Part shown: positions 4,604-26,780 of the stretch, one piece after another
Layout: each line of letters begins with the position of its first letter
How positions within the stretch are numbered: position 1 is the first letter of the stretch
From: an uncultured Gammaproteobacteria bacterium
GTDB lineage: Bacteria; Patescibacteriota; Microgenomatia; UBA12405
NCBI GenBank assembly: GCA_964549165.1
Contig: CAZJUH010000001.1
Location: 74,566-138,565, forward strand
Length of the DNA: 64,000 nt
Direction of reading: 5' to 3'
Position numbers and translations under genes: made by a program
Notes under the pieces: generated by a model
Databases searched by the model: none
Told to the model about the DNA's origin: nothing
What the model saw: the letters and a program-made list of their open reading frames with translations, nothing else

Positions 4604-4717
4604 CTTTGGCGGCATTGGGGCCTGGGATTAGTCTGTCTCTATAACACCCATATTATTACTGTCTTATTTTATCAACCTTTTGTGGCTAAATGAGACAAAT
4701 GAGACAGTATAAAAAAC
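4604..4717 (+). repeat. copy A of a ~115-bp intergenic repeat (ctttggcgg..ggtctggga..ctgtctctataacac..gtcttatttt..cttttgtagctaaatgagacaaatgagacagtataaaaaa)
   Basis: near-identical 3' 45 bp and a similar 5' part shared with copies at 7817-7932 and 12869-12984, all in the same orientation; internal inverted GAGACA/TGTCTC hexamers. Confidence 0.7.
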
Positions 4718-4800
4718 TCCAAACATCTTTAGAACTTAATATCTCAAAAAACGCGCAATAAAAACTTTAATCTGTTTTTAGGCAAAAAATTATTAAAAAA

Positions 4801-5208
4801 TCAATCAAAGGGATTATTTATTAAATGTTCGAACGGCATCTGCTCAGGAATTATGCCGATTGATTTGCCATATTCTCGTGCCTGAATCAATTGTGGATCA
4901 TTATCCCCAAAATCAAAAACCCTGTCTTTAAATACAACAGTCATCCTGCCGTTTTTACATAAATGTGTGTAAAACCCATCCTTAATATCAGTTTTTGCTT
5001 GCTTAACATATCCGTCTTTTATGGAATCAGAAACTTCAACTTTATGAAAGGTCATTACCCTGTTCTCTTTTTCCAGTTTCTCAACATCTGTGTGTACTAT
5101 TCTAGCCATGGCCAAAATCGATTTATCTTGTAAACTCTCTTCAAGCACAACTCCTTGCCATAAATTTAATTGATTTTCATTTTTATCCATATTTATCATA
5201 AAAACCAT
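4801..5208 (-). CDS. hypothetical protein
   Basis: 135-aa ORF with no recognisable motifs. Confidence 0.35.
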   Translation of the reverse strand: MVFMINMDKNENQLNLWQGVVLEESLQDKSILAMARIVHTDVEKLEKENRVMTFHKVEVSDSIKDGYVKQAKTDIKDGFYTHLCKNGRMTVVFKDRVFDFGDNDPQLIQAREYGKSIGIIPEQMPFEHLINNPFD

Positions 5209-5311
5209 TAATTATGTGTATTTTAATTTCTATAACAAAAATTGTCAAATAAGATCATTTATTACAATACATATGGGCAATATTCTTCGTTATATTTGGT
5301 AATTAACTTAG

Positions 5312-5817
5312 TTAGATCATTTCGCAACCAAGGTGTTTGAACTTCATAATAATCATAATTACTCCAATCCTCGAGTGTTTTTTGGGGGGGGTAAAACCAT
5401 GTTTGACAGCTTGATCATATAAAGGAGTACCTGGGAAAGGAGTGTAAATGTGTGCTTTTACTTCATGGATTGAACCTTTTTTCATGATTTTTTCACCAAA
5501 ATTCAACGTTCTTTTTATATTTTCTTCGGGAAAACCAGGATAACCAACAATAATGGTAAAACTACCGTGTATTTCAAAATTCTTTAACATCCTCGCCACC
5601 TTCAATACTTCTTTGGTTGTTACCCCTTTTTGAATAAATTTAAGCTCGTCTTCATTTCCAGATTCTGCTCCTATAAGAATTCTGGATAAACCGCTCTTCT
5701 TCAACAAAGAGAACTCTTCCTTTGTATATGACAACAAACTCTTTGGATGTGCCGATGCGGCCCAATTTATTTTCCAGTCTTTTTCGATTACATTTTGAGC
5801 AAATGCTAATACTCTTT
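5312..5817 (-). pseudogene. radical SAM (B12-binding class-like) gene remnant: N-terminally truncated at the IS boundary and frameshifted at a G8 homopolymer
   Basis: translation resembles the C-terminal half of B12-binding radical SAM enzymes (ILIGAESGNEDEL, IIVGYPGFPEE); the reading frame stays open up to a TGA abutting the IS end at 5818; the G8 run at ~5383-5390 is followed by a nonsense tail (IGVIMIIMKFKHLGCEMI). Confidence 0.55.
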
Positions 5818-5834
5818 GTCAAGTACCCCATTTG

Positions 5835-6692
5835 TTAAACCACTTTTTCTATAAGGTTTAGTTTTTGAAGATATTGTTGTTTGAATTGGATCGGAGACAT
5901 CTTGAGACTAGTGTGGATTCTGGTTTGGTTGTAGTAATTAATTGTTTGGTGAATAGCTTCGACAAATTCACCAACTGAATTAAACCTATCAAACTCTAAA
6001 CCAAGATCAGTTTTGAAATTATCATAGAAAGATTCCTGATAACCATTTTCCCAAGGTGAAGCTTTTTTACTCATGGATACTGTTACACCCAGATCAGTGA
6101 TTAGTTTGGTGTAATCATGGCAATTGTACTCTACTCCCTGATCTGAATGAACAAATTTAGGCAAGATTCCTTTGTTTTCAAAAGCATCAAAAAAGGCATT
6201 GATAACTAAATCTTTGGTATGTCTGGCTGATAAGCTCCAACCAACAATTTCTCTAGTGAAAAGATCCATGAAAGTACAAAGGTAAATAAATCTGGAATTA
6301 AATCTAAGATAAGTAAAATCTGACACCCAGGTGACATTGGGAACAATGGGAAAACTACCTTTAATTTGATTGGTAAAAGCAGCTTCCGTCCTTCTTTCAT
6401 CTCTTCGTTTTCGCCATTTTCTTTTTCTCTTATACGGTTTGATATTAAATTGTTTCATCACCCGACGGATTCTTTTCTTGTTAACGCCTAAGGCAATAGC
6501 GATTCTTCTGTGACCATAACTGGGGTTTGATTCCAAAACAGACAGGATTTGTGCTTTTAATTGTTCGTCTTGATTTGGTTTAGAAGAACAGTAAAAGTAA
6601 ACATCACGAGAAATTCCTAAAAGTTTAATTATTTGGTTTTTACTGGCTTTAATCAAACTGTTATCTAGTTTGATTTTAATGACATCAAACAA
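5835..6692 (-). CDS. IS3-family transposase OrfB (DDE integrase catalytic domain)
   Basis: HRRIAIAL.. integrase-core region, YTYLRFN, HSDQGVEY motifs typical of IS3/IS150 OrfB. Confidence 0.85.
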   Translation of the reverse strand: MFDVIKIKLDNSLIKASKNQIIKLLGISRDVYFYCSSKPNQDEQLKAQILSVLESNPSYGHRRIAIALGVNKKRIRRVMKQFNIKPYKRKRKWRKRRDERRTEAAFTNQIKGSFPIVPNVTWVSDFTYLRFNSRFIYLCTFMDLFTREIVGWSLSARHTKDLVINAFFDAFENKGILPKFVHSDQGVEYNCHDYTKLITDLGVTVSMSKKASPWENGYQESFYDNFKTDLGLEFDRFNSVGEFVEAIHQTINYYNQTRIHTSLKMSPIQFKQQYLQKLNLIEKVV

Positions 6693-6711
6693 CCATTGAT
6701 AGAAAAGTGAT

Positions 6712-6960
6712 CTACTTTTTCTTTTTTTTTAATTTTTCCAATTCGATAGTTAAAGCCCCAACAATTTCTTTAAGTATTTGGTTTTCTTTCTTAATCTTAC
6801 CCAGTTCTAGGACAGAAATTGTGTCAACTACACCCACCTTTAACCAAGCATAAATAGTTCGATCAGAAACTCCGTATTGTGTAGCCACTTCCTTAACAGT
6901 TTTGCCAGATTTAACTTTGTCTAAGATTTCTTTTTTAACTTCAGAATTAATAGTACTCAT
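6712..6960 (-). CDS. IS3-family transposase OrfA (HTH)
   Basis: 82-aa HTH protein (VKEVATQYGVSDRTIYAWLK) with leucine-zipper-like C-terminus ending in KKKKK over an AAAAAAAG slippery site (programmed -1 frameshift site). Confidence 0.75.
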   Translation of the reverse strand: MSTINSEVKKEILDKVKSGKTVKEVATQYGVSDRTIYAWLKVGVVDTISVLELGKIKKENQILKEIVGALTIELEKLKKKKK

Positions 6961-7002
6961 TTAGTACCTCCTTAAATTATTAAACCACATGCACTAACTG
7001 GT

Positions 7003-7701
7003 TTAGTTTAAGGGGTACCGGTCAACATCCTCAGAGAATTCAAATACATTTGTCCACATTAATTCAACAATTTTATCTATTTCTTGATTATTTATTCTGG
7101 GTAGTAAGAGAGTTACTTTACCGTTATTGTTTTGATATTTTGCATGTCCCAATGACAAACCTCCATGTTCAATCTTTGATCTAACTTCATTAAAAAAATC
7201 ATGCCATTTCCGATCCTCAATGAGCATTTTTGCAAACTCTTTATCTCTTAAACTTCCGCTTTCCATTAGTTGTTTAATACCTTGATCAAATTTGTTTATT
7301 TTTTGAAAAAAGAATCCGATATCTAAACCATATCTTTTTACTAAATATTGTAGAGCTTTGAGTGCAATTTCTCCTTTGATGAAGAAATCTTTAAAATACT
7401 GGTTAACTTGTCGGTCTATCGATTCTTTAACTTCTACAATTTCTCCATTGTTCTGGAATCCCACTATCGTACCCGTCTCTATCTGTTCTCTATGATGCAA
7501 AATCAAAGAAACGAGTTGGTTTTTACTTTCTTGGCAATCATCTAGATTTTCAAGTATGGGGTTGTATAAATCATCAAATTCATTCCTTTCCAAGTCGTTT
7601 TTTACGATTAGGTCTCTTAATTTCATCACGCCAAACATCATCCTTGCATTAAAAGGGTCGTTTGAACCAGTATCTTTATACTTAATTAATGTACCTTGCA
7701 T
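7003..7701 (-). CDS. hypothetical protein (last 5 codons and stop lie inside the IS left inverted repeat)
   Basis: 232-aa ORF with no recognisable motifs; 3' end overlaps the IS terminus. Confidence 0.35.
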   Translation of the reverse strand: MQGTLIKYKDTGSNDPFNARMMFGVMKLRDLIVKNDLERNEFDDLYNPILENLDDCQESKNQLVSLILHHREQIETGTIVGFQNNGEIVEVKESIDRQVNQYFKDFFIKGEIALKALQYLVKRYGLDIGFFFQKINKFDQGIKQLMESGSLRDKEFAKMLIEDRKWHDFFNEVRSKIEHGGLSLGHAKYQNNNGKVTLLLPRINNQEIDKIVELMWTNVFEFSEDVDRYPLN

Positions 7702-7816
7702 TCCTTATTTTACCCTATTACAGGCTATTTCAGTGAAAAATGTTGTATTTGACGAATATATGGCAACAGCTTAGGACAATACTTGACTAGCAAGTGGGTC
7801 GCATAGAACTTTGACC

Positions 7817-7932
7817 CTTTGGCGGAACATTAAGGTCTGGAACCTTTCTGTCCTTATAACACTGTCCCCAACCTCTGTCTTATTTTACCAGTCTTTTGTA
7901 GCTAAATGAGACAAACGAGACAGTATAAAAAA
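7817..7932 (+). repeat. copy B of the ~115-bp intergenic repeat
   Basis: aligns with copies A and C; lies in the divergent promoter region between 7701 and 8036. Confidence 0.7.
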
Positions 7933-8035
7933 GGAATATTTCCACAGATTAGGAAATAATACATATATATTGTATATCTATATATTACAGGATGTTGTTC
8001 CAAAATAGGCACCTATTTGAAAAATACGTAAAATA

Positions 8036-9334
8036 GTGGTAAAACATAGTACTATGAAATCAAAAATCCTGTTCTTGTGGCCACCAGAGATACCATACGA
8101 CTTGACCCTACATTATCACTATACTGACTTTGGCGAAATTGCGGCTTATTTCATGAACCAACCAGATAAATATGAGGTCGATATTTTTGATGGTGGGGTA
8201 TTGGCTTACCTCAAAAAAGAGTACGTTAGCTACCTTCTCAAGGAATATGATTATTTGGTTATTCTAACCTACATTCAAAATACCCATTCTGCCGTTAGGG
8301 CAGCTGATCTATGTAAAAAGATATCTCCCAAAACTAAAATTATTGCCTATGGTTCATCGCCATATTACGTTCCTCAATTTTTTGAGAAGGAACCGTTCGA
8401 TGGTTATGTTTGGGATGGAGATTGGGAACTGGCAATTGAGAGTTTCGTAAAATACCATAATGGAGAAATTACCAAAGAAGAAACAAAAGGTATCTGTATT
8501 GATGAAGGCAAAATCAAAAACAAAGGCGAGTGGCTTGATCCCGCCAAATGGGCTTTTCCTCCATTGGGTTTACTTCCTTTGGATGACTACGACCGAGTCT
8601 TATCACAAAAGAAAACTATCAAGAAATTCGGTGACCGACAAATTAGTGTTACTGTTTCTCGAGGTTGTCCATTCGCCTGTCCATTTTGTAAAGCTTCGGT
8701 AATGTATGGTCGTCAAGAAAAACGCCGACCAGTTGATCAATTTATTAAATATTTGGAGGATAACATCGACAGATTTGACGTTCTTCAAATGTTTGCTCCA
8801 AACTTTACTCTTGATCAAGAATGGACAAAAGAATTTTGCCAAAAAATAATAGATAAAAAGTTAAAACTTGACTGGCGTTGCACCACCAGAGCACAATTAA
8901 TTACCCCAGAACTTGCTGAAATAATGGCAAAAGCAGGATGTAAATCTATTGGTATTGGCGTTGAATCTCTTCAGGATGATATTCAGAAAAACATCGGCAA
9001 AGTTCTTAATACTCATCAAATTTTGGACACATTTAGAACCCTAAAAAAAGTTGGTATTATTCCCAAAGGTTACATCATGCTGGGACTACCCGGTCAGACA
9101 CGTGAAGATGTTTATAAAACAATTCGCATGATTACAGAAGCTGGCGGAGAGGTTCGTCCAAGTTCATATTCGCCATACCAGAATCTAAATCGTCAATCGA
9201 CCTTAAAAGAAATTGCGGCTATGAATCGTTACACCTACGATATTAATGCCGTTAAAGGCTTAAATCCAGTTGAGTTCTTAAAAATTGTCTTCGAAAGAGA
9301 TCTTGAAGATCATCAACATCATTATGAAGATTAA
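8036..9334 (+). CDS. B12-binding domain radical SAM protein
   Basis: N-terminal Rossmann-like cobalamin-binding-type region, then the CPFACPFC (CxxxCxxC) radical SAM cluster motif. Confidence 0.8.
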   Translation: MVKHSTMKSKILFLWPPEIPYDLTLHYHYTDFGEIAAYFMNQPDKYEVDIFDGGVLAYLKKEYVSYLLKEYDYLVILTYIQNTHSAVRAADLCKKISPKTKIIAYGSSPYYVPQFFEKEPFDGYVWDGDWELAIESFVKYHNGEITKEETKGICIDEGKIKNKGEWLDPAKWAFPPLGLLPLDDYDRVLSQKKTIKKFGDRQISVTVSRGCPFACPFCKASVMYGRQEKRRPVDQFIKYLEDNIDRFDVLQMFAPNFTLDQEWTKEFCQKIIDKKLKLDWRCTTRAQLITPELAEIMAKAGCKSIGIGVESLQDDIQKNIGKVLNTHQILDTFRTLKKVGIIPKGYIMLGLPGQTREDVYKTIRMITEAGGEVRPSSYSPYQNLNRQSTLKEIAAMNRYTYDINAVKGLNPVEFLKIVFERDLEDHQHHYED

Positions 9335-10403
9335 ATTAACTGAAGAAGAGATTAATAAACTAAAGGTAAACCAAGGTGTCCGACCGCACCGAGTTAAATT
9401 TCAATTGACGAATGCTTGCAATGCAAGATGTAAGCATTGTAATTTGTACTTAATAAAGCCGGATGTGTTGTCCAAAGAAGTTGTTCTAAAAACTCTTGAA
9501 GATCTATCAGGACTAGGTGGTAAAGATGTCGATTTTACCGGAGGTGAGCCGACGACTCATCCAAATTTTGTCGAATTCATAAAGACTGCAACAGATTACG
9601 GACTCAAGGTAAAAGCAAATACCAACGGATTCTTGTTGACAGAAAAGTTAGCTGAGGGAATGATAAAAGCTGGTTTAAAAGAACTAGCAATATCTGTTGA
9701 CTCCCATAGCGCCGAGGAACATGACAGGCGCCGATGTTTACCCGGTGGTTGGCAGAAAGCCATTGACGGCATCAATTTTATCGATAAGTATCGAAATAAA
9801 TATAAGACAAGTACTAAGGTGATTCTTTATTCCATACTCTCTAATAAAAATTACAACCACGCTCCAGAAATAATTGATCTGAAAAAGATTGCTAATTTCG
9901 ACGAGATAAATTTTATCCCCATCAAAGACATTGAAAATAAAGAGGATTTTTTAACAAAAGAACAAATTCAAGATTATTACAAAAATATTAAACAGATATT
10001 GGTTGAAAAATACAATGAGTACAAATTCACTGGTATTTTTAGAACAATAGACGATCCGTTTGGTGTTATGGCCTCAAAAACCGAAGATAAATCAACCTCG
10101 GCCAAATACACCGAAGAAATTTACAAGAATCTTCCCTGTTATATCACTAATTTTTATTCATATATTATTTCTGACGGCTCAGTTGTTCAATGTTGTGTGG
10201 CGCCCCACCATCTTCGACCTGAATTTATCATGGGAAACATCAATCAACAAAGCTTTAAAGAAATTTGGAACTCTGACCGATATAATCAACTAAGACAAAC
10301 ACTTCTCAAACCAAATTTTGAAATTTGTAAATGTTGTAGTGGGCACCACACCGCTTTTAATCTTGATGTTCACCAGCAAATAAATGACTATGAAAAGGGT
10401 TGA
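9324..10403 (+). CDS. radical SAM protein with C-terminal SPASM/twitch-like Cys-rich domain
   Basis: CNARCKHC (CxxxCxxC) near the N-terminus; C-terminal CCVAPHH...CKCCSGHH cysteine cluster; start taken at ATG 9324 (MKIKLTEEE), overlapping the upstream gene. Confidence 0.8.
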   Translation: MKIKLTEEEINKLKVNQGVRPHRVKFQLTNACNARCKHCNLYLIKPDVLSKEVVLKTLEDLSGLGGKDVDFTGGEPTTHPNFVEFIKTATDYGLKVKANTNGFLLTEKLAEGMIKAGLKELAISVDSHSAEEHDRRRCLPGGWQKAIDGINFIDKYRNKYKTSTKVILYSILSNKNYNHAPEIIDLKKIANFDEINFIPIKDIENKEDFLTKEQIQDYYKNIKQILVEKYNEYKFTGIFRTIDDPFGVMASKTEDKSTSAKYTEEIYKNLPCYITNFYSYIISDGSVVQCCVAPHHLRPEFIMGNINQQSFKEIWNSDRYNQLRQTLLKPNFEICKCCSGHHTAFNLDVHQQINDYEKG

Positions 10404-11100
10404 AGATCTACTCATACGAGGTGAATTAACACCATTAAGGCGGGGATTAGTTAAGGAAACTTACCGTCACAAAGATGTTGTTATTGGACTGGTTCGGGTT
10501 GATAAATTGGATGTTCATGATCGTGACCCTCTAATGTTGCGTGATTCTGTCAGAAAATACGTTGACGGATTACATAGTGCTGGAGTACCAATAGTTGATG
10601 TTGTGGAAGTGGAACTTCAAGGATCTAATTTAGTGATGGTAACCAAGTTTATGCCTCAGTTCTTAGATTTAGCCATGAAGGCCAGTGAGGTAGATTTTGT
10701 CGCTGGGAGTAACCGAATGCTTTCAGATATTGCTAAAACTAAAGATACTCAAGTTGGGATTGATCCAACCCCCAAAAACTTTGCCTATAATCACGATCAA
10801 ATTTTATATGCAGATTTCTTTTATCCCATTACTCGGGAATATTCCGAGTGGAAAAAGAGTCGAATGACTTTAGATACTCCAAGACGTCGTTGGGTTCACT
10901 TTGCTCAAGATTACTTTTATTACCCCAGTGTCTATACTCATGCGATTTGTGATTTAGCCGATATCGGTATCCAAACTCGTGACGAGACGTTTCAACTAGT
11001 CACTGATTTTTGTCAGCATCGAGGTTTTGGTATTGACCTTAAATCTTCATTAGATTATTATCAGGAAACAAGGATTCGACATGGTCAACAAAAACACTAG
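10384..11100 (+). CDS. hypothetical protein with protein-kinase-like/aminoglycoside-phosphotransferase-like catalytic loop
   Basis: GIDPTPKNFAYNHDQILYADF resembles the H/DxxxxN...DF catalytic/DFG region of APH/choline-kinase-fold enzymes; weak. Confidence 0.35.
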   Translation: MTMKRVEDLLIRGELTPLRRGLVKETYRHKDVVIGLVRVDKLDVHDRDPLMLRDSVRKYVDGLHSAGVPIVDVVEVELQGSNLVMVTKFMPQFLDLAMKASEVDFVAGSNRMLSDIAKTKDTQVGIDPTPKNFAYNHDQILYADFFYPITREYSEWKKSRMTLDTPRRRWVHFAQDYFYYPSVYTHAICDLADIGIQTRDETFQLVTDFCQHRGFGIDLKSSLDYYQETRIRHGQQKH

Positions 11101-12241
11101 AACCCTATTCAAAAATACCACTGCTATTATCGGAGATGGAATGGAAGTGACTAATAATATAGATCTCTTAGTCATTGGTGACACTATTACTCAAATCGAT
11201 AAGGATGTCGATACATCTAATACTGAAATTTTAGATGGCGAACAATTTGTTTTATGTCCGTCATTTGTGAATGCACACACACATCTTGACGATAGTACTA
11301 TTACTGATATTGGCATTGGCCAAAGTCTTGAAGAGTTAGTATTTCCAAATGGTGTCAGAGAAAAAATTACTTCAGTTTCAAGGGACGATTTCAAATCTTC
11401 TATTAAAGATACTGTTCACAGAATAATTCTCGGTGGGACAGGAGTAATTTGCAGTTTTTGCGAAAGTGGAACTGAAGGTGTTGAGAAGGTTAAAGAATCA
11501 ATCAATCCTGATTTAAAGTCAATCTTGGTTGGTCGATTCAAAAGCAGGTTCCCGTACGAATCTAATGTTGAGAATCTACTAAAAATTGCCGATGGATTTG
11601 CTCCGGGTTTTATTAAGGATATCTCTGAAGAAGATTTGAAAAAAATATCTCAAAGGATTTTAACTGTTGGTGGTTTTATCGCAATGCACAGCCTTGAGTC
11701 AAAAGATCTTCCAGTAGAAAACTTTTATAAGACAGTCGATTATCTGAAACCAAAATTTTTGGTTCACCTAGTTCAAGCTAGTCAAAAAGAGATTAGCTAT
11801 CTTGCCGACAAAGATATCGGAGTTGTCTGTTGTCCCCGCGGTAATTCAATTACCGGAGTTGGCATTCCCCCAATTCTCCCGCTTTTAGAAAAGGGAATAA
11901 CCGTGGCTCTCGGGACTGATAATATTTTTCTTAATTCTCCTGATATGTTTCGGGAAATGGAGTTTACCTCAAGACTATTAAGAGGCATCACTCAAAATGC
12001 ATCAGCTACTGACTCAAAGACAATTCTTAAAATGGCAACAATAAATGGGGCCAAGATTCTCGGAATAGAGGGTAGCTATGGATCACTTTCTGTCGGTAAA
12101 AAAGCCAATATCATTGTATTCTCTAAGAAGTCAAGCAGTTTCATTCGATCTGCCGACATTGTTTCAACAATAGTTCATCGAGCTGGGGTAGACGATATTC
12201 ATGAGGTATATCTAAACGGGGATGTTTACAGCTCCAGGTGA
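11081..12241 (+). CDS. amidohydrolase-family metal-dependent hydrolase
   Basis: VNAHTHLDDS HxH metal-binding motif near the N-terminus, TIM-barrel amidohydrolase-like length and later His/Asp positions (HSLES, GTDN). Confidence 0.65.
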   Translation: MVNKNTRTLFKNTTAIIGDGMEVTNNIDLLVIGDTITQIDKDVDTSNTEILDGEQFVLCPSFVNAHTHLDDSTITDIGIGQSLEELVFPNGVREKITSVSRDDFKSSIKDTVHRIILGGTGVICSFCESGTEGVEKVKESINPDLKSILVGRFKSRFPYESNVENLLKIADGFAPGFIKDISEEDLKKISQRILTVGGFIAMHSLESKDLPVENFYKTVDYLKPKFLVHLVQASQKEISYLADKDIGVVCCPRGNSITGVGIPPILPLLEKGITVALGTDNIFLNSPDMFREMEFTSRLLRGITQNASATDSKTILKMATINGAKILGIEGSYGSLSVGKKANIIVFSKKSSSFIRSADIVSTIVHRAGVDDIHEVYLNGDVYSSR

Positions 12242-12813
12242 GATGTGTCGTTCCAAAATTTTACTTCAGCTTTGTCACCTTCAATTTCGAGTAGAGATAA
12301 AGCTCCACCAGTGGTGTGTTCCAATTTCATTCCAAAAAGAGAGTTAAGCCGACCAATGAAATGACCATGAGTGATGACTAATATATTTTCAAAACCTGAT
12401 TTTTCAATTAGTTCTTTAAATTCGGCGGCTCGACGTTTTACATCATTCTCACTCTCACCACCTTTACATTTGAAATCATCAGGATCAAGGCCACTACTAT
12501 CACGAACCGCATAATATTCCGTTGAAGGTTGGCCTTCAAACTCCAATCTGTTTATTTCTCGGACTAAGTCAGTAACAATCACTTTTTTTGGGTCAACTCT
12601 GAAGCCACCCTTAAAAATTTGATCCATGGTTTGCAATGTTCGAAAGAGACTACTACAATAAATCGCATCAATCTTGATACCATCTCTTACTAGTCTCTCT
12701 CCTAACTTTTTGGCATCCACCATTCCTTTGTCAGATAACCCGGTATAAGAAAAAGCGATGTATCCTTCGGCGTTACTAATAGACTCTCCGTGACGTGTAA
12801 GATATATTCTCAT
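12226..12813 (-). CDS. histidine phosphatase family protein (phosphoglycerate-mutase-like)
   Basis: IYLTRHGES RHG motif, later ITHGHFI histidine; convergent 16-bp overlap with the amidohydrolase gene. Confidence 0.75.
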   Translation of the reverse strand: MRIYLTRHGESISNAEGYIAFSYTGLSDKGMVDAKKLGERLVRDGIKIDAIYCSSLFRTLQTMDQIFKGGFRVDPKKVIVTDLVREINRLEFEGQPSTEYYAVRDSSGLDPDDFKCKGGESENDVKRRAAEFKELIEKSGFENILVITHGHFIGRLNSLFGMKLEHTTGGALSLLEIEGDKAEVKFWNDTSHLEL

Positions 12814-12868
12814 GAGTGATTATAACTTAATATAAAAAAACAATAAAATTGCTCGAACAATACACGAA

Positions 12869-12984
12869 GTGCGGAGCATGTGGGTCTGGGATGAAACTGT
12901 CTCTATAACACCCACATTGTCATTGTCTTATTTTTTATCAGCCTTTTGTAGCTAAATGAGACAAATGAGACACTATAAAAAAGG
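12869..12984 (+). repeat. copy C of the ~115-bp intergenic repeat
   Basis: aligns with copies A and B; immediately 3' of the minus-strand gene ending at 12986. Confidence 0.7.
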
Positions 12985-12985
12985 A

Positions 12986-13897
12986 CTACAACAGTTTATT
13001 GATTTCTAAGTCCCACCCATCTTTATGAATTAGTCGATCTTTACAAAGATTAGCATTGATTATCTCAGCTTTGGTTTTTTGAGACAACTCTTCCCAATTA
13101 TTTTCCAAAATATAGGTGGCATTTCCATAAAATGGGCTTTCAAGTACAAATAGATTTTTATTGGTAAAACCCATAATAATATAACCATGGAAACCTGCAT
13201 TTCCGACGGCAGTAAAATCAGGATGGTGTTTATTTATAAGTTCAAGACGATGTTCTAGATAAGAGCGATTTCCTTTTGGGGTCTCTTCAATAATCTTTTC
13301 AACCTCTTTTTTAAGAGATGACCATGGCATTTGTCCTTGTGGCAATATTGTCCAATTCAATCGTCTTGTTGGTGAAGCTACATCACCCATTTTTGGATCT
13401 AAAATCTGACATTCACCAAATATTTCCAAAAATAAATTTACTACATGTGTTACTTTGTCTTCATCACTAACATCAATTGTTGGACTAACAATTAGTTTTA
13501 TCCCATTTTGAATTGTTGATATTGATAATTCCACACTTGGTGGAACAATAAAAGTTCTCGGATATCTTTTATAAGGAACTTCAACAAATTTACTACGTTC
13601 AACCTGATAAGGACCGTGCCACTCTTGCCATGTCCATTCAGTAACACGCGATACTTCTTCCATTGGTTGATCTTTATGGATTAAATACTTACCCTCTGCA
13701 TTAAAGCTACTGACAGGACCGAATTGTGCTGACGGTAAAACTGTTTCTCCATTCTCAATTTTAGATGTAAAGCCTATTTTGCTGCTTAATTTTGAGTTTT
13801 CTGCGTCAACTGATACTCCAATAATAATATTTTTATATTTTGATAAAACTCCTTTAAAGGGTTTTAATGTTCTGATTCTTCTTTTTTTGATTAACAT
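12986..13897 (-). CDS. hypothetical protein, 303 aa, co-transcribed downstream of the Cas2/VapD-like gene
   Basis: no recognisable motifs; 12-bp spacing to the upstream gene. Confidence 0.4.
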   Translation of the reverse strand: MLIKKRRIRTLKPFKGVLSKYKNIIIGVSVDAENSKLSSKIGFTSKIENGETVLPSAQFGPVSSFNAEGKYLIHKDQPMEEVSRVTEWTWQEWHGPYQVERSKFVEVPYKRYPRTFIVPPSVELSISTIQNGIKLIVSPTIDVSDEDKVTHVVNLFLEIFGECQILDPKMGDVASPTRRLNWTILPQGQMPWSSLKKEVEKIIEETPKGNRSYLEHRLELINKHHPDFTAVGNAGFHGYIIMGFTNKNLFVLESPFYGNATYILENNWEELSQKTKAEIINANLCKDRLIHKDGWDLEINKLL

Positions 13898-13909
13898 AGT
13901 TTTAATAAT

Positions 13910-14176
13910 TTATAATCTGGCGTTTAACCAGTCATGGGCACCAGTGATCATCCATGCGGAATAGCTATTTTTATACAATTGAGCAGTGAAGATATAATCA
14001 TTTGAATCGACCACTGTTCTTATTTGATCACTAATAGTATTGAGATCATAAGCGGTATCCAGAAACCACAAATTTTGTAATGGATGAAGAGTTTGACCTA
14101 AACTCATAATTTTTTTATAGAGAGCATCGTAATTTTGCCCTTCTTTCCTTAGATCGTATGTTATTATATAGACCAT
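13910..14176 (-). CDS. Cas2/VapD-like small protein (ferredoxin-like-fold endoribonuclease family)
   Basis: 88 aa; MVYIITYDL N-terminus (Cas2 MLVLVxYDI/VapD MYAIAFDL pattern with the conserved Asp), central LHPLQNLWFL (cf. Cas2 RVQYSVFEC), C-terminal IRTVVDSNDYIFTAQL (cf. Cas2 IVDSEDSIRVYxL); motif-level resemblance only. Confidence 0.45.
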   Translation of the reverse strand: MVYIITYDLRKEGQNYDALYKKIMSLGQTLHPLQNLWFLDTAYDLNTISDQIRTVVDSNDYIFTAQLYKNSYSAWMITGAHDWLNARL

Positions 14177-14287
14177 ATTGACTTTAATTTATAATGATTT
14201 ATACTTAATTAATAAGGCTTAAGCCTACATCTTTAAGCATATACTTACAATTTTAAGCTTTTTATTAAAAAAATCAAGGGGTAATTT

Positions 14288-14656
14288 ATGATAAATAAAA
14301 TAGATTTAGGTTTTAGGATTGCTGAAAAAAGAAAAAGATTGGAAATGTCCCAATCACAATTAGGGGAAATGTTAGGTATTAGTCATGCGGCTGTATCTGA
14401 TATTGAAAGAGGGATAACTAATCTTAATGTTGAAGGAATATCTAAAATTGCTGATATTCTTAAAACAACATTTGAAGATCTTACTTTTATAAATGATTAC
14501 AGTTCTGCCACACAATCATTTAATTCATCGAATGGGATAAGTGTTTCTGGATATAGATTAGGAAAATACGCTAACAATAATGATATGGAAGAAGCAGATA
14601 AAAAAATTAAAGATAGATTGGCACAATTAAGAAAGGAGAAAAATGATTCACAGTAA
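14288..14656 (+). CDS. XRE-family HTH transcriptional regulator
   Basis: SQSQLGEMLGISHAAVSDIERG HTH_3 motif. Confidence 0.8.
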   Translation: MINKIDLGFRIAEKRKRLEMSQSQLGEMLGISHAAVSDIERGITNLNVEGISKIADILKTTFEDLTFINDYSSATQSFNSSNGISVSGYRLGKYANNNDMEEADKKIKDRLAQLRKEKNDSQ

Positions 14657-15149
14657 AGCTGCAAGAGAAAAAGCAGATAATATTATTGAAATGTATCATA
14701 TTGATGAAGCACCGGTCGATATTTTTGGAATTGCAGAAAAACTAGGTTTTGTGGTAGATAAAATTGAGTTACCCAATGAAATACCTGCAAAAATTGAGGC
14801 TCATGAAGATATTAAGGTCATTTTCATTAATAGTAAACATCCTTTAACAAAACAAAGATTCTCCGTTGGTCATGAACTTGGTCATTATCTGAGTGGGCAT
14901 GAAAATTTCAATGTCGATATTAGATCAATGGCAGATCCGGATAGAAAATATCTTAACTCTCAATATCAACAAGAATACGAAGCTGATGATTTTGCTGCAG
15001 AAATTTTAATGCCAAAATCAATTCTAAAAAAAGATTCCATGGAAAATAAACTTAGTCTAGCTGATTTGGTAAAGAAATACGAGGTAAGTGAACAAGCAAT
15101 GACCATTCAACTTGTTAATCTAAAATTACCCTTTAACAGTGAAAAGTAG
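14643..15149 (+). CDS. ImmA/IrrE-family metallopeptidase
   Basis: HELGHYLSGHE HEXXH motif in an ImmA-sized protein immediately downstream of, and overlapping, an XRE regulator gene. Confidence 0.8.
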   Translation: MIHSKAAREKADNIIEMYHIDEAPVDIFGIAEKLGFVVDKIELPNEIPAKIEAHEDIKVIFINSKHPLTKQRFSVGHELGHYLSGHENFNVDIRSMADPDRKYLNSQYQQEYEADDFAAEILMPKSILKKDSMENKLSLADLVKKYEVSEQAMTIQLVNLKLPFNSEK

Positions 15150-15151
15150 TG

Positions 15152-16234
15152 TCAGGATACAATTTTTACTAAATCATCCTCACTTTCGTAGCCCCTGATT
15201 CTACCTGTTAGAATTCCAAGTCTCTGACTGATTCCGTCACTCATTAATCGCCAGTTTGTATCTTCCAATGTTTTTTTAATCAATTTTTTTAAGTTATTTT
15301 GACTATCGTAGTCACTTTTTGAAGTATCTGATTCTTGTACAGAAAATGGAATTATTACATCTCTAGTAATTTCTGGTTTATCAAAGGAAAGTTCAATATA
15401 TTTTGCTTTTTCTAAGGTTTCTTTTAAAAGTTTTTGTAAATCAAAGACTTTTATTTTTTTTAAGGCTTTTGCTTTCTTATAACGTGGGTCAGCTTCCTTT
15501 GTTTTTCTTTCCTCTTCGTGTTTAGAATATAATTCTGACTGTATTTGATTTGAAACATACTCTTCCCCTTTTTCTTTACTTAAGCAAAATACTCCCCTAA
15601 AAGTTTCTAATAATTGTTTATCTTTTTCTTGTTTCCTTTTATATTCATCACTCTCAGCTTTCATATCCCAAACATCCTTGTTTTTATAACCACATTTGCA
15701 TGTTTCGATGGTAGTAATTACTTCACCTTTTCGTTGGCTATCTTCTTTTAATTCTTGATTACATTTAGGGCATGTGGGTCTTTTTGGTTTAAATTCTTCA
15801 CCATTATCAAAAACACCTCTTCCTTTTTTACAATTAGGACATCTGAAAAAGAATAATATGTTTGATGATTTTTCAGAAAGGTTATATAAGGTTTTGTCTT
15901 CAAACTCCATTGCCCAATTACAATCTGGGCAAAATATTGAACTTGGCTCTTTTGCATTGTCATATATTTCTTGTTCTATTCGATCCTTATCCATCCATTC
16001 TCTTATTGTTTTTTCCTTGTTTCGATATTCCTCACCTTTTTTATAATAGAGAGATATCTCTCCTAATCCTTCTACAAATCCTTTTGGATCTGCTAATTTA
16101 AAATCATTGATTTCTTCTCTATCTTTTTTAATCTTCTTTTTCCATATTTCAATAAAATCAAGGCAATTTTTAATAGTTAATAGATCATAAAGATCTTCAT
16201 AGTATTGTTTCTCTTTTATATAATTCATTAACAA
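15152..16234 (-). CDS. hypothetical protein with multiple CxxC zinc-ribbon motifs
   Basis: CPDCNW...CPNCKK...CPKCNQ...CKCGYK cysteine pairs; charged low-complexity regions; start overlaps the upstream gene by 7 bp. Confidence 0.4.
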   Translation of the reverse strand: MLMNYIKEKQYYEDLYDLLTIKNCLDFIEIWKKKIKKDREEINDFKLADPKGFVEGLGEISLYYKKGEEYRNKEKTIREWMDKDRIEQEIYDNAKEPSSIFCPDCNWAMEFEDKTLYNLSEKSSNILFFFRCPNCKKGRGVFDNGEEFKPKRPTCPKCNQELKEDSQRKGEVITTIETCKCGYKNKDVWDMKAESDEYKRKQEKDKQLLETFRGVFCLSKEKGEEYVSNQIQSELYSKHEEERKTKEADPRYKKAKALKKIKVFDLQKLLKETLEKAKYIELSFDKPEITRDVIIPFSVQESDTSKSDYDSQNNLKKLIKKTLEDTNWRLMSDGISQRLGILTGRIRGYESEDDLVKIVS

Positions 16235-16833
16235 TTAGCCTCTTCTGAATCTATTTCTTTTTGCGATTTAACAAATTTACCAGTGTCCATATCAAAACCT
16301 CTTACAAATTCAATTGAGTAGATACCGATACTATTAGCTGTTGAATCAACTGGTTGGTTTGATATCCTAGACAATTCATCAAATTTCTTATCATCAGTAG
16401 TAACCAAAACTGGTATCCAATTAATATAATTCCATTCTTTCTTTTTAACATCATAATGAGCTGGTAAAACCATAATATTATAAAACTGGTAAACATCATC
16501 CATCATTTTCATATATTCTTTTGATCTAAACAGATCATCAGTGGGAACAATATCTTTAGAATTCCAATATTCCTTTTTGAGTGGGAATCTTTTATTAAAA
16601 TTAATCTTAATAATAACCAACCCACTAACATAAATCGGGCCTTCTTTTAATTTAAGTAAATCTTTTCTTAATTTTTTAACTCTAGTTTGAAGAGATTTTA
16701 CTGTTGGATATATTTGAACTAGTATTTGAATATATCTTAAATTATCAGTTTTACCAACAAATATCACTCCCACATAAGCAGTATCTGGGAAATCCGGCTC
16801 TCGATAACAATACTTTTGGCTTTTCTTATCCAT
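16228..16833 (-). CDS. hypothetical protein, 201 aa
   Basis: ORF with no recognisable motifs; co-directional with, and between, the type IIG RM gene and the zinc-ribbon gene. Confidence 0.35.
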   Translation of the reverse strand: MDKKSQKYCYREPDFPDTAYVGVIFVGKTDNLRYIQILVQIYPTVKSLQTRVKKLRKDLLKLKEGPIYVSGLVIIKINFNKRFPLKKEYWNSKDIVPTDDLFRSKEYMKMMDDVYQFYNIMVLPAHYDVKKKEWNYINWIPVLVTTDDKKFDELSRISNQPVDSTANSIGIYSIEFVRGFDMDTGKFVKSQKEIDSEEANC

Positions 16834-17085
16834 GTTTTAACCAATATTAACATTTAAGGTAAAATTAAATTGAAATGAGTCCTTGGTTTAAAAAATGGTT
16901 ATGTAGAATAATTCTTTGGTATTCGGCCTTTTTTATAATTGCTGATATCTGGGGAGTGGATAATTTGAATCTGTTTATTATGGCCTTTTTTACTTTCTTT
17001 ATAATTGTCGTTCTCCGATTTGTAATAAGAATTTTAACAGAATTATTTAATCTCAGGCTAGAAATTTATCTACACAATTAAATTA

Positions 17086-19875
17086 TTAGGTATTTTCTAT
17101 AATTCCCTTTTCTTCTTCGTTTAATCCATACAATTTATAAACTTCTTTATCTATTTGTTTCTCTATTTCCGTAATTTTATTATTTAATTCAAAATATTTA
17201 TCTGAATTTTTAGAAATATTATTAACTTCTGTTTTAAAACTAATAATTTTATCGACTAGATTAATAATGTCCTTCTGTTGTTCTTTTTCTGCTTTATATA
17301 TTGGCACTTTTAATAAAGGACCTTTGTCTATTTGGAGCAAATCTCCTAATCTTTTTCCCTTATTTATCAACCAATAAAAAGCCAATTTTGAATTTAGCAA
17401 CCCAACTAAATATTTTAAGTTTATTCTATCGGTTTTAATAAAATTTAAAGCCCTTGATCCATAATACTCATTTTCAGTGTAGAAAAAACTTGGTAATGCT
17501 ACTCTTGCACCACCAATAATTTTACTTCCTTTTGTAAAAAACCGTTCATCTCTTTCTCGATGTAGGTAGTAATATGGTTTTGTTGGAGTTTTATATTTTA
17601 TTTTGGAATCTTTTAGCAAAGTTTCGTATTTTTTAAAATGGTTATGTAGTGATGGAAAATCTTCTATTGATTTTCCATTAAAATTTTTAGCGGATAAATA
17701 AATGATATATTTATTTGTTTGCGCTCCATTATATTTTTGTGCTGAAGTATAAAACGATTTAATATATTCACGTTCTTGTAATCCAAAATCTTTTAATTCA
17801 TTGATAATAAAACATTTATCAGGTGCACCAACAATACCTTGTGCTACTTCTTTTTCTTCCAACTGGAAATTTGCCTTTGATAGTATTTTTTCTAAAATCG
17901 AATTATTTTCCTTGTTTGAGAATATTATGTTTTGACCTAATAGTTTATTTTTTTCTATTTGAATTTTTATTTTGCTCTGTTGAATTTTGTTAATTATTTC
18001 TAGTTCAGTAGAACTACTGTTTTCAATTTTTAGATATTCAACATTGTATTTTTCTCGTGGTTTACATTTTTTAAAAACAAAAATCATCGTTTGTATCCCA
18101 GCTTCATTAAATACTTTGTAATCTCCGAAATCTATAAAGCTTAATATTTCTCCCTCATTTAATATTTTGTCTCTAAAAATACTAGCACCTGCATTGGAAA
18201 TCCAATTATTTGGTGCAATAAAACTTAAATATCCACCGTCACGAAGAAGATCAATTGCTTTACAGGCAAACAGTGTCCATAAATCCATTTTTCCTTGATA
18301 ATATGGGCTATCGTGTAAATCATTAAATGCCGCTTTGTTTACAAATTCTTTAATATATGGTGGATTTCCGACAATTACGTCGAATCCTGGATTTTCCCGC
18401 TTAAAAATATATTCAAATTCTTTTTTATATTCAAAAGCCTTATCAGTTGTTTTTTTATCTTCAATTAAAGAATTTCCTACACAAATGTTCTTGCTTATTA
18501 TTGGTAATTTGAAGTTTGGGACGACTGATTGTAGTAAAAGATTAAGTCGAGCAATTTCAATAGCTTGTTCGTCTAGATCAACTCCATAAATGTTTTCTTG
18601 TAATATTCGATATTTTCTAATTGCGGCAATATCTTTATCATTAATATCTTGATTATTTTCTTTTCTTAAATATTGATCTAAATATTCAAAACTATTTATT
18701 AAAAAAGAGCCACTACCACATGCAGGATCAAGAATTTTAATCGATTGTTTCTCGTTCAAATTATTCATTTCTGATAATTTTTTCCCAATTGTATTACTGA
18801 CTATATAATCAACAATGTAACTTGGTGTGTAATATATTCCCTGTTTTTTTCTTTTTCCCTCATCTTTTTTCCCTTTTTGAAGGTATCCCAAATATTGTTC
18901 ATAGACTTTTCCTAATACATCGGCATTTATTGCATCAAATCGATAACTAACCTGTTGTTTTTCATTGCGGTAAAGCTCAGGAATAATTTGTTTGAAAGGA
19001 TTACCCTCAGTATCGAGCTTTTCGCAATAATGTTCATGGAACAAATTACTGTTATAAGTTTGGTCAAATTTTCTAAAGAGTGGAATTAATAGTTCAATAA
19101 AATTATATGGTTTAAATCCATTGCTTTGCCATCTTTGAAATGTTTGCCATAAAAATTTATCTTCTATTCCTTTATCTTCAATCACACGAATAAAAATCAA
19201 TCTATCTAAAATTCTTTGGACAGATTCATTTAACAATCTCAAATCAACACCTGTATTCCATTGTTTTAGATTATTAGTTAATGTGTCTCGCCATCTGACT
19301 AGATCAGCTGCCAGTAATTCATTTACTTTTATTCTTTTTGAGCCAATACCAAAACTTGATAAAGTAGTATCAAGTAAATTTTGGTTAAATGATTCTTTTG
19401 AAAGAAGCCATAGGGTATCAAATTTATCTAAATATTCTGTATATTTAAAATCAAGCCTCTCTTTTGGTCGACCGATATTTTCTTCTGAATTAAAAAGTTT
19501 TAATCCTTCAAAGTCAGTTAATACAACCCATGGAACACCCATATTCCAACCGTATTCAACCGTTTGATTAGCCCATTGTTCTTTGTCTAGATTTTCCGAC
19601 ATTGATTTTGCTTCTAATAAAAACTGTGTTAGATGATTGACTCTAAAAGCATAATCAACTCGACCACAAATAGATGGATCTTCTTCAACAATATCTTCAT
19701 GAATATCCCAACCAAGAGCTTCAAACATTGGAAGAATAAAGTTTTTTCTTGTGTTTGCTTCGTTATAACTTTTCTTTTCTAAGGGTGTTAATCTCTTATA
19801 TTTTTCGATTAATTCAGAAATTTTTATCTTTGCTTCGTCTTTAGACATTTGTTTTTGATTATCTATTGGTGACAT
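17086..19875 (-). CDS. type IIG restriction-modification enzyme (MmeI/Eco57I-like: N-terminal PD-(D/E)xK nuclease + gamma-class N6-adenine methyltransferase + C-terminal specificity region)
   Basis: N-terminal GRVDYAFRV...LLEAKSM (HsdR-N/Mrr-like D..EAK nuclease motif), motif I ILDPACGSGSFL, motif IV VGNPPYIKE; 929 aa. Confidence 0.75.
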   Translation of the reverse strand: MSPIDNQKQMSKDEAKIKISELIEKYKRLTPLEKKSYNEANTRKNFILPMFEALGWDIHEDIVEEDPSICGRVDYAFRVNHLTQFLLEAKSMSENLDKEQWANQTVEYGWNMGVPWVVLTDFEGLKLFNSEENIGRPKERLDFKYTEYLDKFDTLWLLSKESFNQNLLDTTLSSFGIGSKRIKVNELLAADLVRWRDTLTNNLKQWNTGVDLRLLNESVQRILDRLIFIRVIEDKGIEDKFLWQTFQRWQSNGFKPYNFIELLIPLFRKFDQTYNSNLFHEHYCEKLDTEGNPFKQIIPELYRNEKQQVSYRFDAINADVLGKVYEQYLGYLQKGKKDEGKRKKQGIYYTPSYIVDYIVSNTIGKKLSEMNNLNEKQSIKILDPACGSGSFLINSFEYLDQYLRKENNQDINDKDIAAIRKYRILQENIYGVDLDEQAIEIARLNLLLQSVVPNFKLPIISKNICVGNSLIEDKKTTDKAFEYKKEFEYIFKRENPGFDVIVGNPPYIKEFVNKAAFNDLHDSPYYQGKMDLWTLFACKAIDLLRDGGYLSFIAPNNWISNAGASIFRDKILNEGEILSFIDFGDYKVFNEAGIQTMIFVFKKCKPREKYNVEYLKIENSSSTELEIINKIQQSKIKIQIEKNKLLGQNIIFSNKENNSILEKILSKANFQLEEKEVAQGIVGAPDKCFIINELKDFGLQEREYIKSFYTSAQKYNGAQTNKYIIYLSAKNFNGKSIEDFPSLHNHFKKYETLLKDSKIKYKTPTKPYYYLHRERDERFFTKGSKIIGGARVALPSFFYTENEYYGSRALNFIKTDRINLKYLVGLLNSKLAFYWLINKGKRLGDLLQIDKGPLLKVPIYKAEKEQQKDIINLVDKIISFKTEVNNISKNSDKYFELNNKITEIEKQIDKEVYKLYGLNEEEKGIIENT

Positions 19876-20090
19876 TTATGCTTTGATTATATCTCATAGG
19901 AGAATTAAAGCGGTTGGCTAAAATAAAAAAATCAAAAGAATTACTATAATTACTATAGATGCACAAAAATCGAGACCCAAACAAGCGGGACTCTCAACTG
20001 CCGTAACTCTTATATATCGGTCATAAGCATCTTACATAAGGACAAAATTTATTTATTTTTTGCGGTTTAGACCGCTGTCCTAATATAATT

Positions 20091-21446: not shown

Positions 21447-21951
21447 GTGCTTAAAAAAGAACTCTATAATTCAAATAGCTTGTCAGCAAGCGGATATTAG
21501 TCGCGCCACCTATTATCGGTGGCGCGATGAAGATAAAAACTTTAAAAAAGAAACTGACCAAGCCAAAAAAGAAGGATTTGAAGTGATTAATGATTTAGCA
21601 GAAACAGGCTTAATAAAAGCAATTAAAGATGGTAACGTCACGGCTATTTTTTATCGACTTAATCATTGTCACCCAGATTATTCTGACAAGAGGTTGTATT
21701 TGTCTAACTCTGACCAAAAACAATTGATTGATGATATTAGTACAAGCAATATAAAAAATATATTGGAAATTCTAATGGAAAAACTTATAAAAGGAGAAAT
21801 TTCAAAATCTGCTGCTAACCAAGTCATATTAATGATTAATAAAATTTATCCACAAGAGGTTAATTCGTTACGTCAGCAGGAAATAAGGAAAACATTAAAT
21901 GAGATGTCAGATCTAATTAATGAGTTAAGTCCAAATTCAAATAGAAAATAG
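21421..21951 (+). CDS. HTH-containing phage-like protein (terminase-small-subunit/transposase-HTH-like N-terminus)
   Basis: IACQQADISRATYYRWRDEDKNF HTH pattern; overlaps the upstream methyltransferase gene. Confidence 0.35.
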   Translation: MKSKKEVIKCLKKNSIIQIACQQADISRATYYRWRDEDKNFKKETDQAKKEGFEVINDLAETGLIKAIKDGNVTAIFYRLNHCHPDYSDKRLYLSNSDQKQLIDDISTSNIKNILEILMEKLIKGEISKSAANQVILMINKIYPQEVNSLRQQEIRKTLNEMSDLINELSPNSNRK

Positions 21952-21967
21952 TAAATTAACTAATCTA

Positions 21968-22189: not shown

Positions 22190-22308
22190 GGCTATTGTGA
22201 AATTAGTATTTACTCCACTAAGCCAAACTTAGCAAATAGGCACAACATAGCCTTGACTTTCTGCTAATCGACAGTTAGCATTGTGATAATTAACAGTTAA
22301 TAAAAAAA

Positions 22309-22785: not shown

Positions 22786-22805
22786 ATAAAGGAATTATTT
22801 TAAAA

Positions 22806-22833: not shown

Positions 22834-22846
22834 ATATCATTTAGAT

Positions 22847-26641: not shown

Positions 26642-26726
26642 GCGGAAGGGGGGGGAGTCGAACCCCCATGCCCCTTACGGGACGCGGGTTTAGCAAACCC
26701 GTGCCTTACCATTCGGCGCACCCTTC
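26642..26726 (-). tRNA. tRNA-Ser (anticodon GCU), type II with long variable arm
   Basis: manual fold: acceptor GGAAGGG/CCCTTCC, anticodon stem CGGGT/ACCCG with loop TTGCTAA, long variable arm, T-arm GGGGG-TTCGACT-CCCCC. Confidence 0.8.
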
Positions 26727-26780
26727 CAAAAGACTTCACAAGTATATCAAATTTAAAGCAAATGCTTTATTATTATTTCA

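Follow-up and report, generated by a model that had tools for sequence, protein, structure and literature searches.

A 4.8 kb operon of five genes (A-E) lies in a 64,000-nucleotide (nt) stretch of contig CAZJUH010000001.1 (GenBank assembly GCA_964549165.1, positions 74,566 to 138,565 of the forward strand; hereafter the window), deposited as an uncultured Gammaproteobacteria bacterium with the GTDB lineage Bacteria; Patescibacteriota; Microgenomatia; UBA12405. With modest confidence, the operon is predicted to carry out radical S-adenosylmethionine (SAM) tailoring of a phosphorylated nucleoside or sugar and not to be a peptide-maturation system. Judging from the relatives of its enzymes, the substrate would most likely be a nucleoside or nucleotide, alternatively a nucleotide-sugar or sugar phosphate. 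The system is a rare, mobile and uncharacterised variant of radical-SAM small-molecule tailoring clusters. Its genes, in window coordinates, are:

Gene A, 8054..9334, + strand: two-domain radical SAM enzyme, 426 amino acids (aa)
Gene B, 9324..10403, + strand: radical SAM enzyme with a C-terminal SPASM-family domain, 359 aa
Gene C, 10390..11100, + strand: kinase with a minimal protein-kinase-like fold, 236 aa
Gene D, 11081..12241, + strand: metal-dependent amidohydrolase of the deaminase/chlorohydrolase class, 386 aa
Gene E, 12226..12813, - strand: branch-1 histidine phosphatase, 195 aa, convergent with D

The mechanical open reading frame (ORF) of gene A opens at a GTG at 8036, while its relatives open at MKSK, which corresponds to 8054. 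With start codons placed as in relatives, overlaps are 11 nt for A/B, 14 nt for B/C, 20 nt for C/D and 16 nt for the convergent pair D/E. The ORF list agrees with the original prediction, made from the DNA letters, on the places of the five ORFs, the A/B overlap and the convergent orientation of E. Both radical SAM motifs named there were found (CPFACPFC in A and CNARCKHC in B), and Pfam backs the domain classes (Radical_SAM in A and B, a SPASM-family domain in B, Amidohydro_1 in D and His_Phos_1 in E). None of the five proteins reached a curated cut-off in the NCBIfam profile scan.

The original prediction started from the premise that SPASM enzymes usually mature peptides and remarked that a precursor peptide was missing. 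The second point holds, as the cassette has no intergenic space, the conserved unit is one of five genes, and short ORFs are confined to the flanking repeats. Because the genes overlap and the DNA common to the window and a related locus (L010; loci are numbered with the prefix L) is confined to 8015-12814, the unit has no place for a precursor peptide gene. Similarly, the Pfam scan of A and B found only Radical_SAM and SPASM-type domains and no peptide-recognition domain (RRE or PqqD).

The premise itself does not carry over to B. Pfam does recognise a SPASM domain in this protein (PF13186, 55.6 bits, beside Radical_SAM at 79 bits), but the 7-Cys SPASM motif for two auxiliary clusters was not found in an alignment of 13 orthologues, in which only five C-terminal cysteines are kept (C272, C290, C291, C335 and C338). 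Four of these (C272, C290/291, C335 and C338) align with the twitch, or single auxiliary-cluster, cysteine set of BtrN, whose auxiliary cluster has Cys4 ligation (PMC10337720). On this cysteine pattern, B is a predicted twitch-like enzyme, not a full 7-Cys SPASM protein, so that the SPASM label stands at the level of the family alone. As the cysteine set is of the twitch type, like that of the small-molecule enzyme BtrN, the expectation of a peptide substrate is inapplicable to B and was dropped. Among solved structures, sequence matches of B were led by BlsE (6.7e-14), followed by SkfB, BtrN and viperin, with PqqE and MoaA also near. Its best NCBIfam match scored 101.6 bits against a cut-off of 380, and the prokaryotic viperin model NF038283 scored 63 bits against a cut-off of 180; two pVip models from PADLOC, a library that gives no curated threshold for them, matched at 75 and 71 bits.

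Enzyme A has a Radical_SAM domain (Pfam, 90.4 bits) with the core motif CxxxCxxC and an N-terminal domain that fold comparison shows to be Rossmann-like, resembling a B12-binding domain, so that the fold is like that of class B (cobalamin-dependent) radical SAM enzymes. The original prediction had called A B12-binding. However, the B12-binding family PF02310 gave no match in A or in 13 of 13 orthologues, while relatives at ~30% identity have one. AprD4 is the top match of A both by structure and by PDB sequence search, and does not bind cobalamin despite its Rossmann-related domain (PMC12931638). The B12-binding character of A is therefore not upheld, and is better described, from sequence and predicted fold, as an architectural resemblance than as a supported cofactor claim. 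The cobalamin-dependent methylases TsrM, CysS and MgmA come next in the structural ranking, and methylation by A remains a candidate because they score nearly as well as AprD4.

The third gene had been described as phosphotransferase-like, and this description is strengthened by the structure predicted for C, a bilobal protein-kinase-like fold with a catalytic-loop D-x4-N, a metal-binding aspartate equivalent to that of the DFG motif and a conserved lysine. Among the closer orthologues (alignment A2) K22 never varies; the wider family keeps D142 (YxDFF), P146 and H184 without exception, and D125-P-x-P-K-N130 and D188 almost without exception. The sole Pfam match is DUF6206, at 22.7 bits and under the cut-off of 30.4, and C had no sequence match in NCBIfam, PADLOC, PHROG or the PDB. 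WaaP, a lipopolysaccharide sugar kinase, is among its structural neighbours. The family is extremely rare. A word-based search returned only five homologues, an exhaustive HMMER scan found 20 clusters among 1.84 billion representatives, and a profile of alignment A2 found six loci in 185,579 species genomes, four of them in Patescibacteria-group assemblies and two in assemblies labelled "Gammaproteobacteria". Relatives of C were not found in the viral-contig scan or the plasmid collection, an exact look-up of the window protein returned no record, and the literature search turned up no publication about either DUF6206 or the cassette.

Motifs and Pfam likewise bear out the last two assignments, a metal-dependent amidohydrolase with HxH and a histidine phosphatase. 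In D (Amidohydro_1, 109 bits) the metal and catalytic residues HxH (NAHTHL), HxxE (MHSLE), H (VHLVQ) and D (GTDN) are kept in four orthologues. The nearest PDB entries are 4dyk/4gbd, then the deaminases 4f0r and TM0936 for 5'-methylthioadenosine (MTA) and S-adenosylhomocysteine (SAH). NCBIfam PRK07213 scored 238 bits against a cut-off of 294, and no specific deaminase equivalog was reached (5'-deoxyadenosine deaminase, 119 bits against 522). In E (PF00300, 93.4 bits against a cut-off of 21.7) the RHG (RHGES) and HGH (THGH) motifs are kept across operon variants, and the nearest PDB entry is PhoE (1h2e), a broad-specificity phosphatase.

Orthologues of the radical SAM pair form sharp groups (55-96% identity for A and 44-86% for B, with next relatives at ~30%), and A and B are adjacent in every orthologous locus. 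The closest A protein, at 96% identity, is from Candidatus Shapirobacteria CG06. Relatives occur only in Patescibacteria-type metagenome assemblies. Two of the cassette-bearing assemblies, those of L018 and L023, are labelled 'uncultured Gammaproteobacteria bacterium', with proteins 100% and 39-58% identical, respectively, to those of Patescibacteria loci; judged by these identities, both labels are probably wrong. Four arrangements of the operon were found:

Variant 1: A-B-C-D-E (E convergent); window, L001, L010-L018 and L020
Variant 2: A-B-K2-C-E (E convergent), then a GT2-like gene, with a methyltransferase also in L004; L004-L009
Variant 3: A-B-HAD-K2-C-HAD, with a NUDIX gene nearby; L040/L041
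Variant 4: GT2-like-A-B-K2, facing E, a methyltransferase, a third radical SAM gene and an HD-domain gene; L042

K2 is a kinase paralogue of 285-293 aa. All four variants share a core of A, B, one or more kinases of the C fold and one or more phosphatases; the deaminase is optional and restricted to variant 1. The convergent placement of E is kept in variants 1, 2 and 4, and in variant 3 the histidine phosphatase is replaced by HAD enzymes, one of them nearest to YjjG-type nucleotidases. This exchange of one phosphatase fold (His_Phos) for another (HAD), with a phosphatase always kept, argues that dephosphorylation is an integral step of the pathway. Other genes vary. For example, the HD-domain phosphohydrolase of variant 4 is an add-on resembling RelA/SpoT hydrolases, and NUDIX genes lie near the cassette in L006 and L040. 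The GT2-like protein of variants 2 and 4 (450-468 aa) is weakly assigned (E ~1e-3, score under the cut-off) and has no PDB or NCBIfam match.

The genes could not be assigned to housekeeping families in a conserved neighbourhood, the outcome that the original prediction had set against itself. The MiaB/RimO, MoaA, HemN/HemW, NirJ/AhbD and BchE families were rejected, as scores lay far under the equivalog cut-offs (for example MiaB/RimO 30 against 251, MoaA 65 against 284 and AhbD 100 against 500 bits in NCBIfam) and the flanks are variable, with a different neighbourhood in every relative. A menaquinone/futalosine-type assignment was also rejected, since the radical SAM families differ and aminofutalosine deaminase scored 71 bits against a cut-off of 320.

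Distant relatives outside the orthologue groups sit among genes for small-molecule metabolism. The best A-like plasmid match (27.6% identity over 92% of the length, E 1e-44) is a Mesorhizobium gene next to genes for a TruD-like synthase, an EPSP-family enolpyruvyl transferase, a Y_phosphatase3, a 2-oxoglutarate oxygenase and a P-loop kinase-like protein. Polyoxin-type PolA, PolH and PolJ form a high-carbon nucleoside antibiotic gene set, in which PolH cyclises 3'-enolpyruvyl-UMP (UMP, uridine monophosphate) and PolJ removes the phosphate (PMC5365060); the Mesorhizobium neighbourhood, with its enolpyruvyl transferase, radical SAM enzyme and Y_phosphatase3, fits this logic. The set (L043, Mesorhizobium huakuii plasmid p_3, 276-292 kb) also has a carbamoyltransferase and an aminotransferase, looks unannotated, and in its predicted gene content resembles a C-nucleoside/octosyl-acid-type antibiotic cluster. 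A second A-like gene directly precedes a thymidylate-kinase-like gene. A B-like gene shares a glycan cluster with glycosyltransferases, epimerases and two B12-radical SAM genes. A distant homologue of C is flanked on one side by a polyol-phosphate dehydrogenase-like gene and on the other by genes for an NTP_transferase, a HAD enzyme and a ribulose-phosphate epimerase.

Taken together, the evidence favours the small-molecule substrate, a nucleoside in particular, that the original prediction had offered as the alternative to a peptide. A sugar- or nucleoside-type substrate is suggested because the closest characterised relatives of A (AprD4) and B (BlsE, BtrN, viperin and MoaA) act on such compounds, and the nucleotide direction because D is nearest to adenosine/MTA/SAH deaminases and one HAD enzyme of variant 3 to YjjG-type nucleotidases, while the HD protein of variant 4 resembles RelA/SpoT hydrolases and NUDIX genes lie nearby in L006 and L040. 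In the proposed pathway, C would phosphorylate a substrate hydroxyl to give a recognised or activated intermediate, on whose sugar ring the AprD4-like A and the twitch-type B would each run a 5'-deoxyadenosyl-radical step; candidate chemistries are dehydration or deoxygenation, oxidation or decarboxylation, and C-C bond formation. E would remove the phosphate, and its separate transcription would suit a last step or self-protection. In variant 1, D would convert an adenine-type base of the product, or clear 5'-deoxyadenosine and SAH, inhibitory by-products of the two radical SAM enzymes.

Several observations weigh against radical-SAM tailoring of a small molecule. Every activity is assigned from distant similarity, with no equivalog cut-off reached. 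By structure, C comes closest to the protein kinases Bud32 and Rio, and two enzymes that modify proteins, MgmA and RimO, are among the neighbours of A. In NCBIfam, B is matched best by maturases of proteins or cofactors (W-cofactor maturase, AhbD and NirJ). The core has no nucleotidyl transferase, glycosyltransferase or transporter, leaving the start and end of the pathway unseen, and the deaminase, missing from three of the four variants, says little about the core substrate. Finally, the contexts of the outside-group relatives belong to proteins of only 27-30% identity and may not transfer.

The cassette is bounded by direct repeats, as the original prediction had proposed for copies B and C:

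Repeat copy A, 4612..4716, + strand: bounds a second cassette (4717-7820)
Repeat copy B, 7821..7935, + strand: ~115 nt, putatively att-like, left cassette boundary
Repeat copy C, 12865..12988, + strand: right cassette boundary
tRNA-Ser(gct), 26642..26727, - strand: probable anchor of a variable island at 4.6-26.7 kb

The repeats are ~120 nt long and occur in three copies in the window, against 0 expected by chance. Each copy opens with ~35 nt that look like the 3' end of tRNA-Ser(gct) in reverse complement, and the remainder is a conserved hairpin-forming segment, which in copy B ends in AAATGAGACAAAYGAGACAGTATAAAAAA; the copies end with a hairpin-forming element and tandem AAATGAGACA motifs. 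These ~35 nt, together with the adjoining ~100 nt on the left of copy B, share homology with tRNA-Ser(gct) at its 3' end and in its downstream flank. An Rfam scan over 4.4-13.2 kb found no credible RNA family for the repeats (sole match sucC, E 0.59), and modest folding z-scores (-0.6 to -3.1) do not support a firm structured RNA. The repeat family is present in 12 metagenome contigs; loci noted with it are L018 and L027-L038. In L029, L030 and L031, the three scanned contigs with a tRNA gene called, the repeat sits on the 3' side of tRNA-Ser(gct), oriented relative to it as in the window. The family may be an att-like recombination site, and tRNA-Ser(gct) probably anchors the variable island over its full extent (4.6-26.7 kb).

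The cassette is mobile, because closely related copies sit in unrelated flanks. Window positions 7821-12908 are 99.7% identical to L018, with identity beginning exactly at copy B and ending inside copy C, and the L018 flanks are otherwise unrelated or 73-77% identical. Similarly, 8015-12814 is 84.6% identical to L010, a contig of CG06 Shapirobacteria, with unrelated flanks. In L021 the remains of a decayed cassette, comprising a truncated C together with D and E, adjoin tRNA-Ser(gct). The flanks are different in every locus. The cassette is thus seen, from these alignments, as one module of a tRNA-Ser-anchored, repeat-partitioned variable island that is moved as a unit between genomes. The horizontal acquisition suggested by the original prediction is supported in this way, but not by its argument from base composition. 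The cassette has 37.4% GC against 35.2% for the window, and compositional evidence for transfer was rejected because one fifth (20%) of windows of that size match or exceed its GC content. The apparent contrast comes from the AT-rich neighbouring block at 13-27 kb, which is the real outlier.

This block (12986-27326, 25-33% GC) carries mobile and defence-type genes, ends at tRNA-Ser(gct) and is probably an integrative element. Its genes include:

14288-15149: XRE/ImmA (CapP-like) pair
17086-19875: type IIG restriction-modification enzyme
20091-21446: ParB-N6/N4 methylase
22847-23380: DUF2726
23415-24755: large serine recombinase, inside the island
24773-26473: AAA_15/OLD-like ATPase

An 88-aa ORF at 13910-14176 (- strand) matches the phage family phrog_1090 at 73 bits, the only PHROGs match among C and the neighbouring uncharacterised ORFs, and has a 29%-identical relative near the L018 cassette. 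On the other side, the second cassette (4717-7820) holds an insertion sequence (IS) of the IS3 family, a radical SAM gene remnant and two uncharacterised ORFs. The remnant (5312-5737, - strand) is a 141-aa C-terminal piece of an unrelated B12-type radical SAM protein (HpnJ-like, 67 bits) with its N-terminal half missing. It adjoins the IS3-family element (5835-6960, - strand; orfA 6712-6960, orfB 5835-6692), and a 59-nt copy of an IS end at 5817-5875 recurs alone at 27811-27869 with 96.6% identity. Elsewhere, the cassette neighbours in L010 are transposase-fragment, AbiEii and SNase genes, and those in L004 and L006 are of housekeeping type. In L007 (7763-12453) the variant-2 operon is followed by a gene whose 1218-aa product faintly matches the Cas12f-type TNB domain and then by a Cas1 gene; these downstream genes may form a CRISPR locus of a candidate phyla radiation (CPR) genome.

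An unlikely but credible alternative is that the operon serves surface-glycan or nucleotide-sugar use, the core making a deoxy, branched or oxidised sugar phosphate and the GT2-like enzyme transferring the sugar to a cell-envelope acceptor. The kinase and phosphatase would then act like the kinase and GmhB in heptose activation, and the alternative is a sub-case of small-molecule tailoring. It draws on the GT2-like gene of variants 2 and 4, the methyltransferase in L004 and L042, the glycosyltransferase/epimerase cluster around the B-like relative, the NTP_transferase, HAD and sugar-phosphate epimerase genes next to the distant C homologue, and WaaP among the structural neighbours of C. However, the GT2 assignment is the weak one described above, and the window variant has no glycosyltransferase or nucleotidyl transferase and has a nucleoside-type deaminase.

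Less likely is an anti-phage or antagonistic generator of nucleotide analogues with a logic like that of viperin or oxetanocin. In it, B, A or both would turn a nucleotide into an analogue that terminates chains or acts as an antimetabolite, the phosphorylated substrate would come from the kinase, and phosphatase and deaminase would protect the producer. The similarity of B to the pVip models and viperin structures fits this idea, and thmC offers a precedent for a phosphohydrolase as self-resistance gene (PMC12691670). However, B lies below the NCBIfam viperin cut-off and has a twitch domain, which viperins do not, and PADLOC assigned the cassette to no defence system apart from the generic pVip similarity. 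The neighbours include defence and mobile genes (the CapP-like/XRE pair, type IIG enzyme and OLD-like ATPase in the window, AbiEii in L010, Cas1 with the faint Cas12f-type protein in L007), but this link is anecdotal; in L004 and L006 the neighbours are of housekeeping type, and the cassette was not found on viral contigs.

Least likely is a protein- or RNA-modifying role, with the radical SAM pair as a maturase regulated by a Bud32/Rio-like kinase and a protein phosphatase, or as part of a pathway for a ribosomally synthesised and post-translationally modified peptide with a distant precursor: the maturases leading the curated-family matches of B (TIGR04317, GeoRSP and WgkB), MgmA and RimO near A, the protein kinases nearest to C and the phosphohistidine phosphatase SixA among the weak NCBIfam matches of E would suit it, but Pfam found no RRE domain, no precursor or fixed partner lies in or next to the unit with its ever-different flanks, HAD enzymes from the class of metabolite phosphatases take the place of the phosphatase in variant 3, and the deaminase, NUDIX, HD and glycosyltransferase accessories suit metabolites better than proteins.

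If the operon does tailor a phosphorylated nucleoside or sugar, its setting is of interest. Patescibacteria (CPR) have very small genomes and almost no biosynthesis. An important ecological role (defence, antagonism or surface decoration) would be suggested because, in so small a genome, a conserved and horizontally exchanged operon devotes two oxygen-sensitive radical SAM enzymes to one small molecule. It is conceivable, though rather unlikely, that this is the first nucleoside-analogue (antimetabolite) pathway of Patescibacteria, in which the four-enzyme core makes a deoxy or rearranged nucleotide analogue against phages, competitors or the host and spreads as a plug-in module via repeat-bounded tRNA-Ser slots. 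The repeats, too, could represent a cassette-exchange mechanism of a new kind. A, B and the kinase belong to orphan subfamilies with no characterised member. The operon, compact enough for direct heterologous expression, could be a source of new radical reactions on sugars or nucleosides and of a metabolite-kinase family that is likewise new.

Known systems resemble the cassette in parts. AprD4, which with AprD3 is the radical SAM 1,2-diol dehydratase of apramycin biosynthesis, is the closest structure to A; however, identity is only 18% and an AprD3-type reductase is missing from the cassette. BlsE (cytosylglucuronate decarboxylase) and BtrN (2-deoxy-scyllo-inosamine dehydrogenase) are both twitch-type enzymes with small-molecule substrates, the former nearest to the core of B among solved structures and the latter sharing the four aligned twitch cysteines. 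In contrast to them, B scores 67.8 bits against the BlsE cut-off of 400 in NCBIfam, and differs from BtrN in an extra conserved cysteine (C291), conserved histidines and ~90 additional residues. The pVip systems likewise combine a kinase gene with a radical SAM enzyme of MoaA/viperin-like core, in surroundings that are mobile and rich in defence genes; beyond the score and the twitch/SPASM domain of B, the difference lies in the kinase, which is protein-kinase-like and not a nucleotide kinase.

The island resembles tRNA-anchored islands with att-like junctions in its position 3' of tRNA-Ser(gct) and in direct repeats that open with a segment like the tRNA 3' end. It differs from them in that most of the ~120-nt repeat is not tRNA-derived and no tyrosine integrase is present, the only predicted recombinase in the setting being the large serine recombinase ~10 kb away.

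The closest parallel in pathway logic is found in nucleoside antibiotics. In sinefungin biosynthesis SinC, SinF and SinD combine radical SAM nucleoside chemistry with phosphorylation and dephosphorylation (bioRxiv 10.64898/2026.05.21.726688), and in the 4'-thiothymidine (thmA-C) and albomycin (AbmG) pathways such chemistry is bracketed by the same two steps (PMC12691670). Like these systems and polyoxin PolH/PolJ (NikJ/NikL), in which a radical SAM enzyme acts on a phosphorylated nucleoside beside a dedicated kinase and/or phosphatase, the cassette pairs radical SAM enzymes with a kinase and a phosphatase. Its folds are protein-kinase-like and His_Phos, whereas the cryptic-phosphorylation pathways use P-loop kinases, Y_phosphatase3 or NTPases, and it has two radical SAM enzymes and no enolpyruvyl transferase where Pol/Nik-type pathways have one radical SAM enzyme, so that the likeness is one of logic and membership is not claimed.

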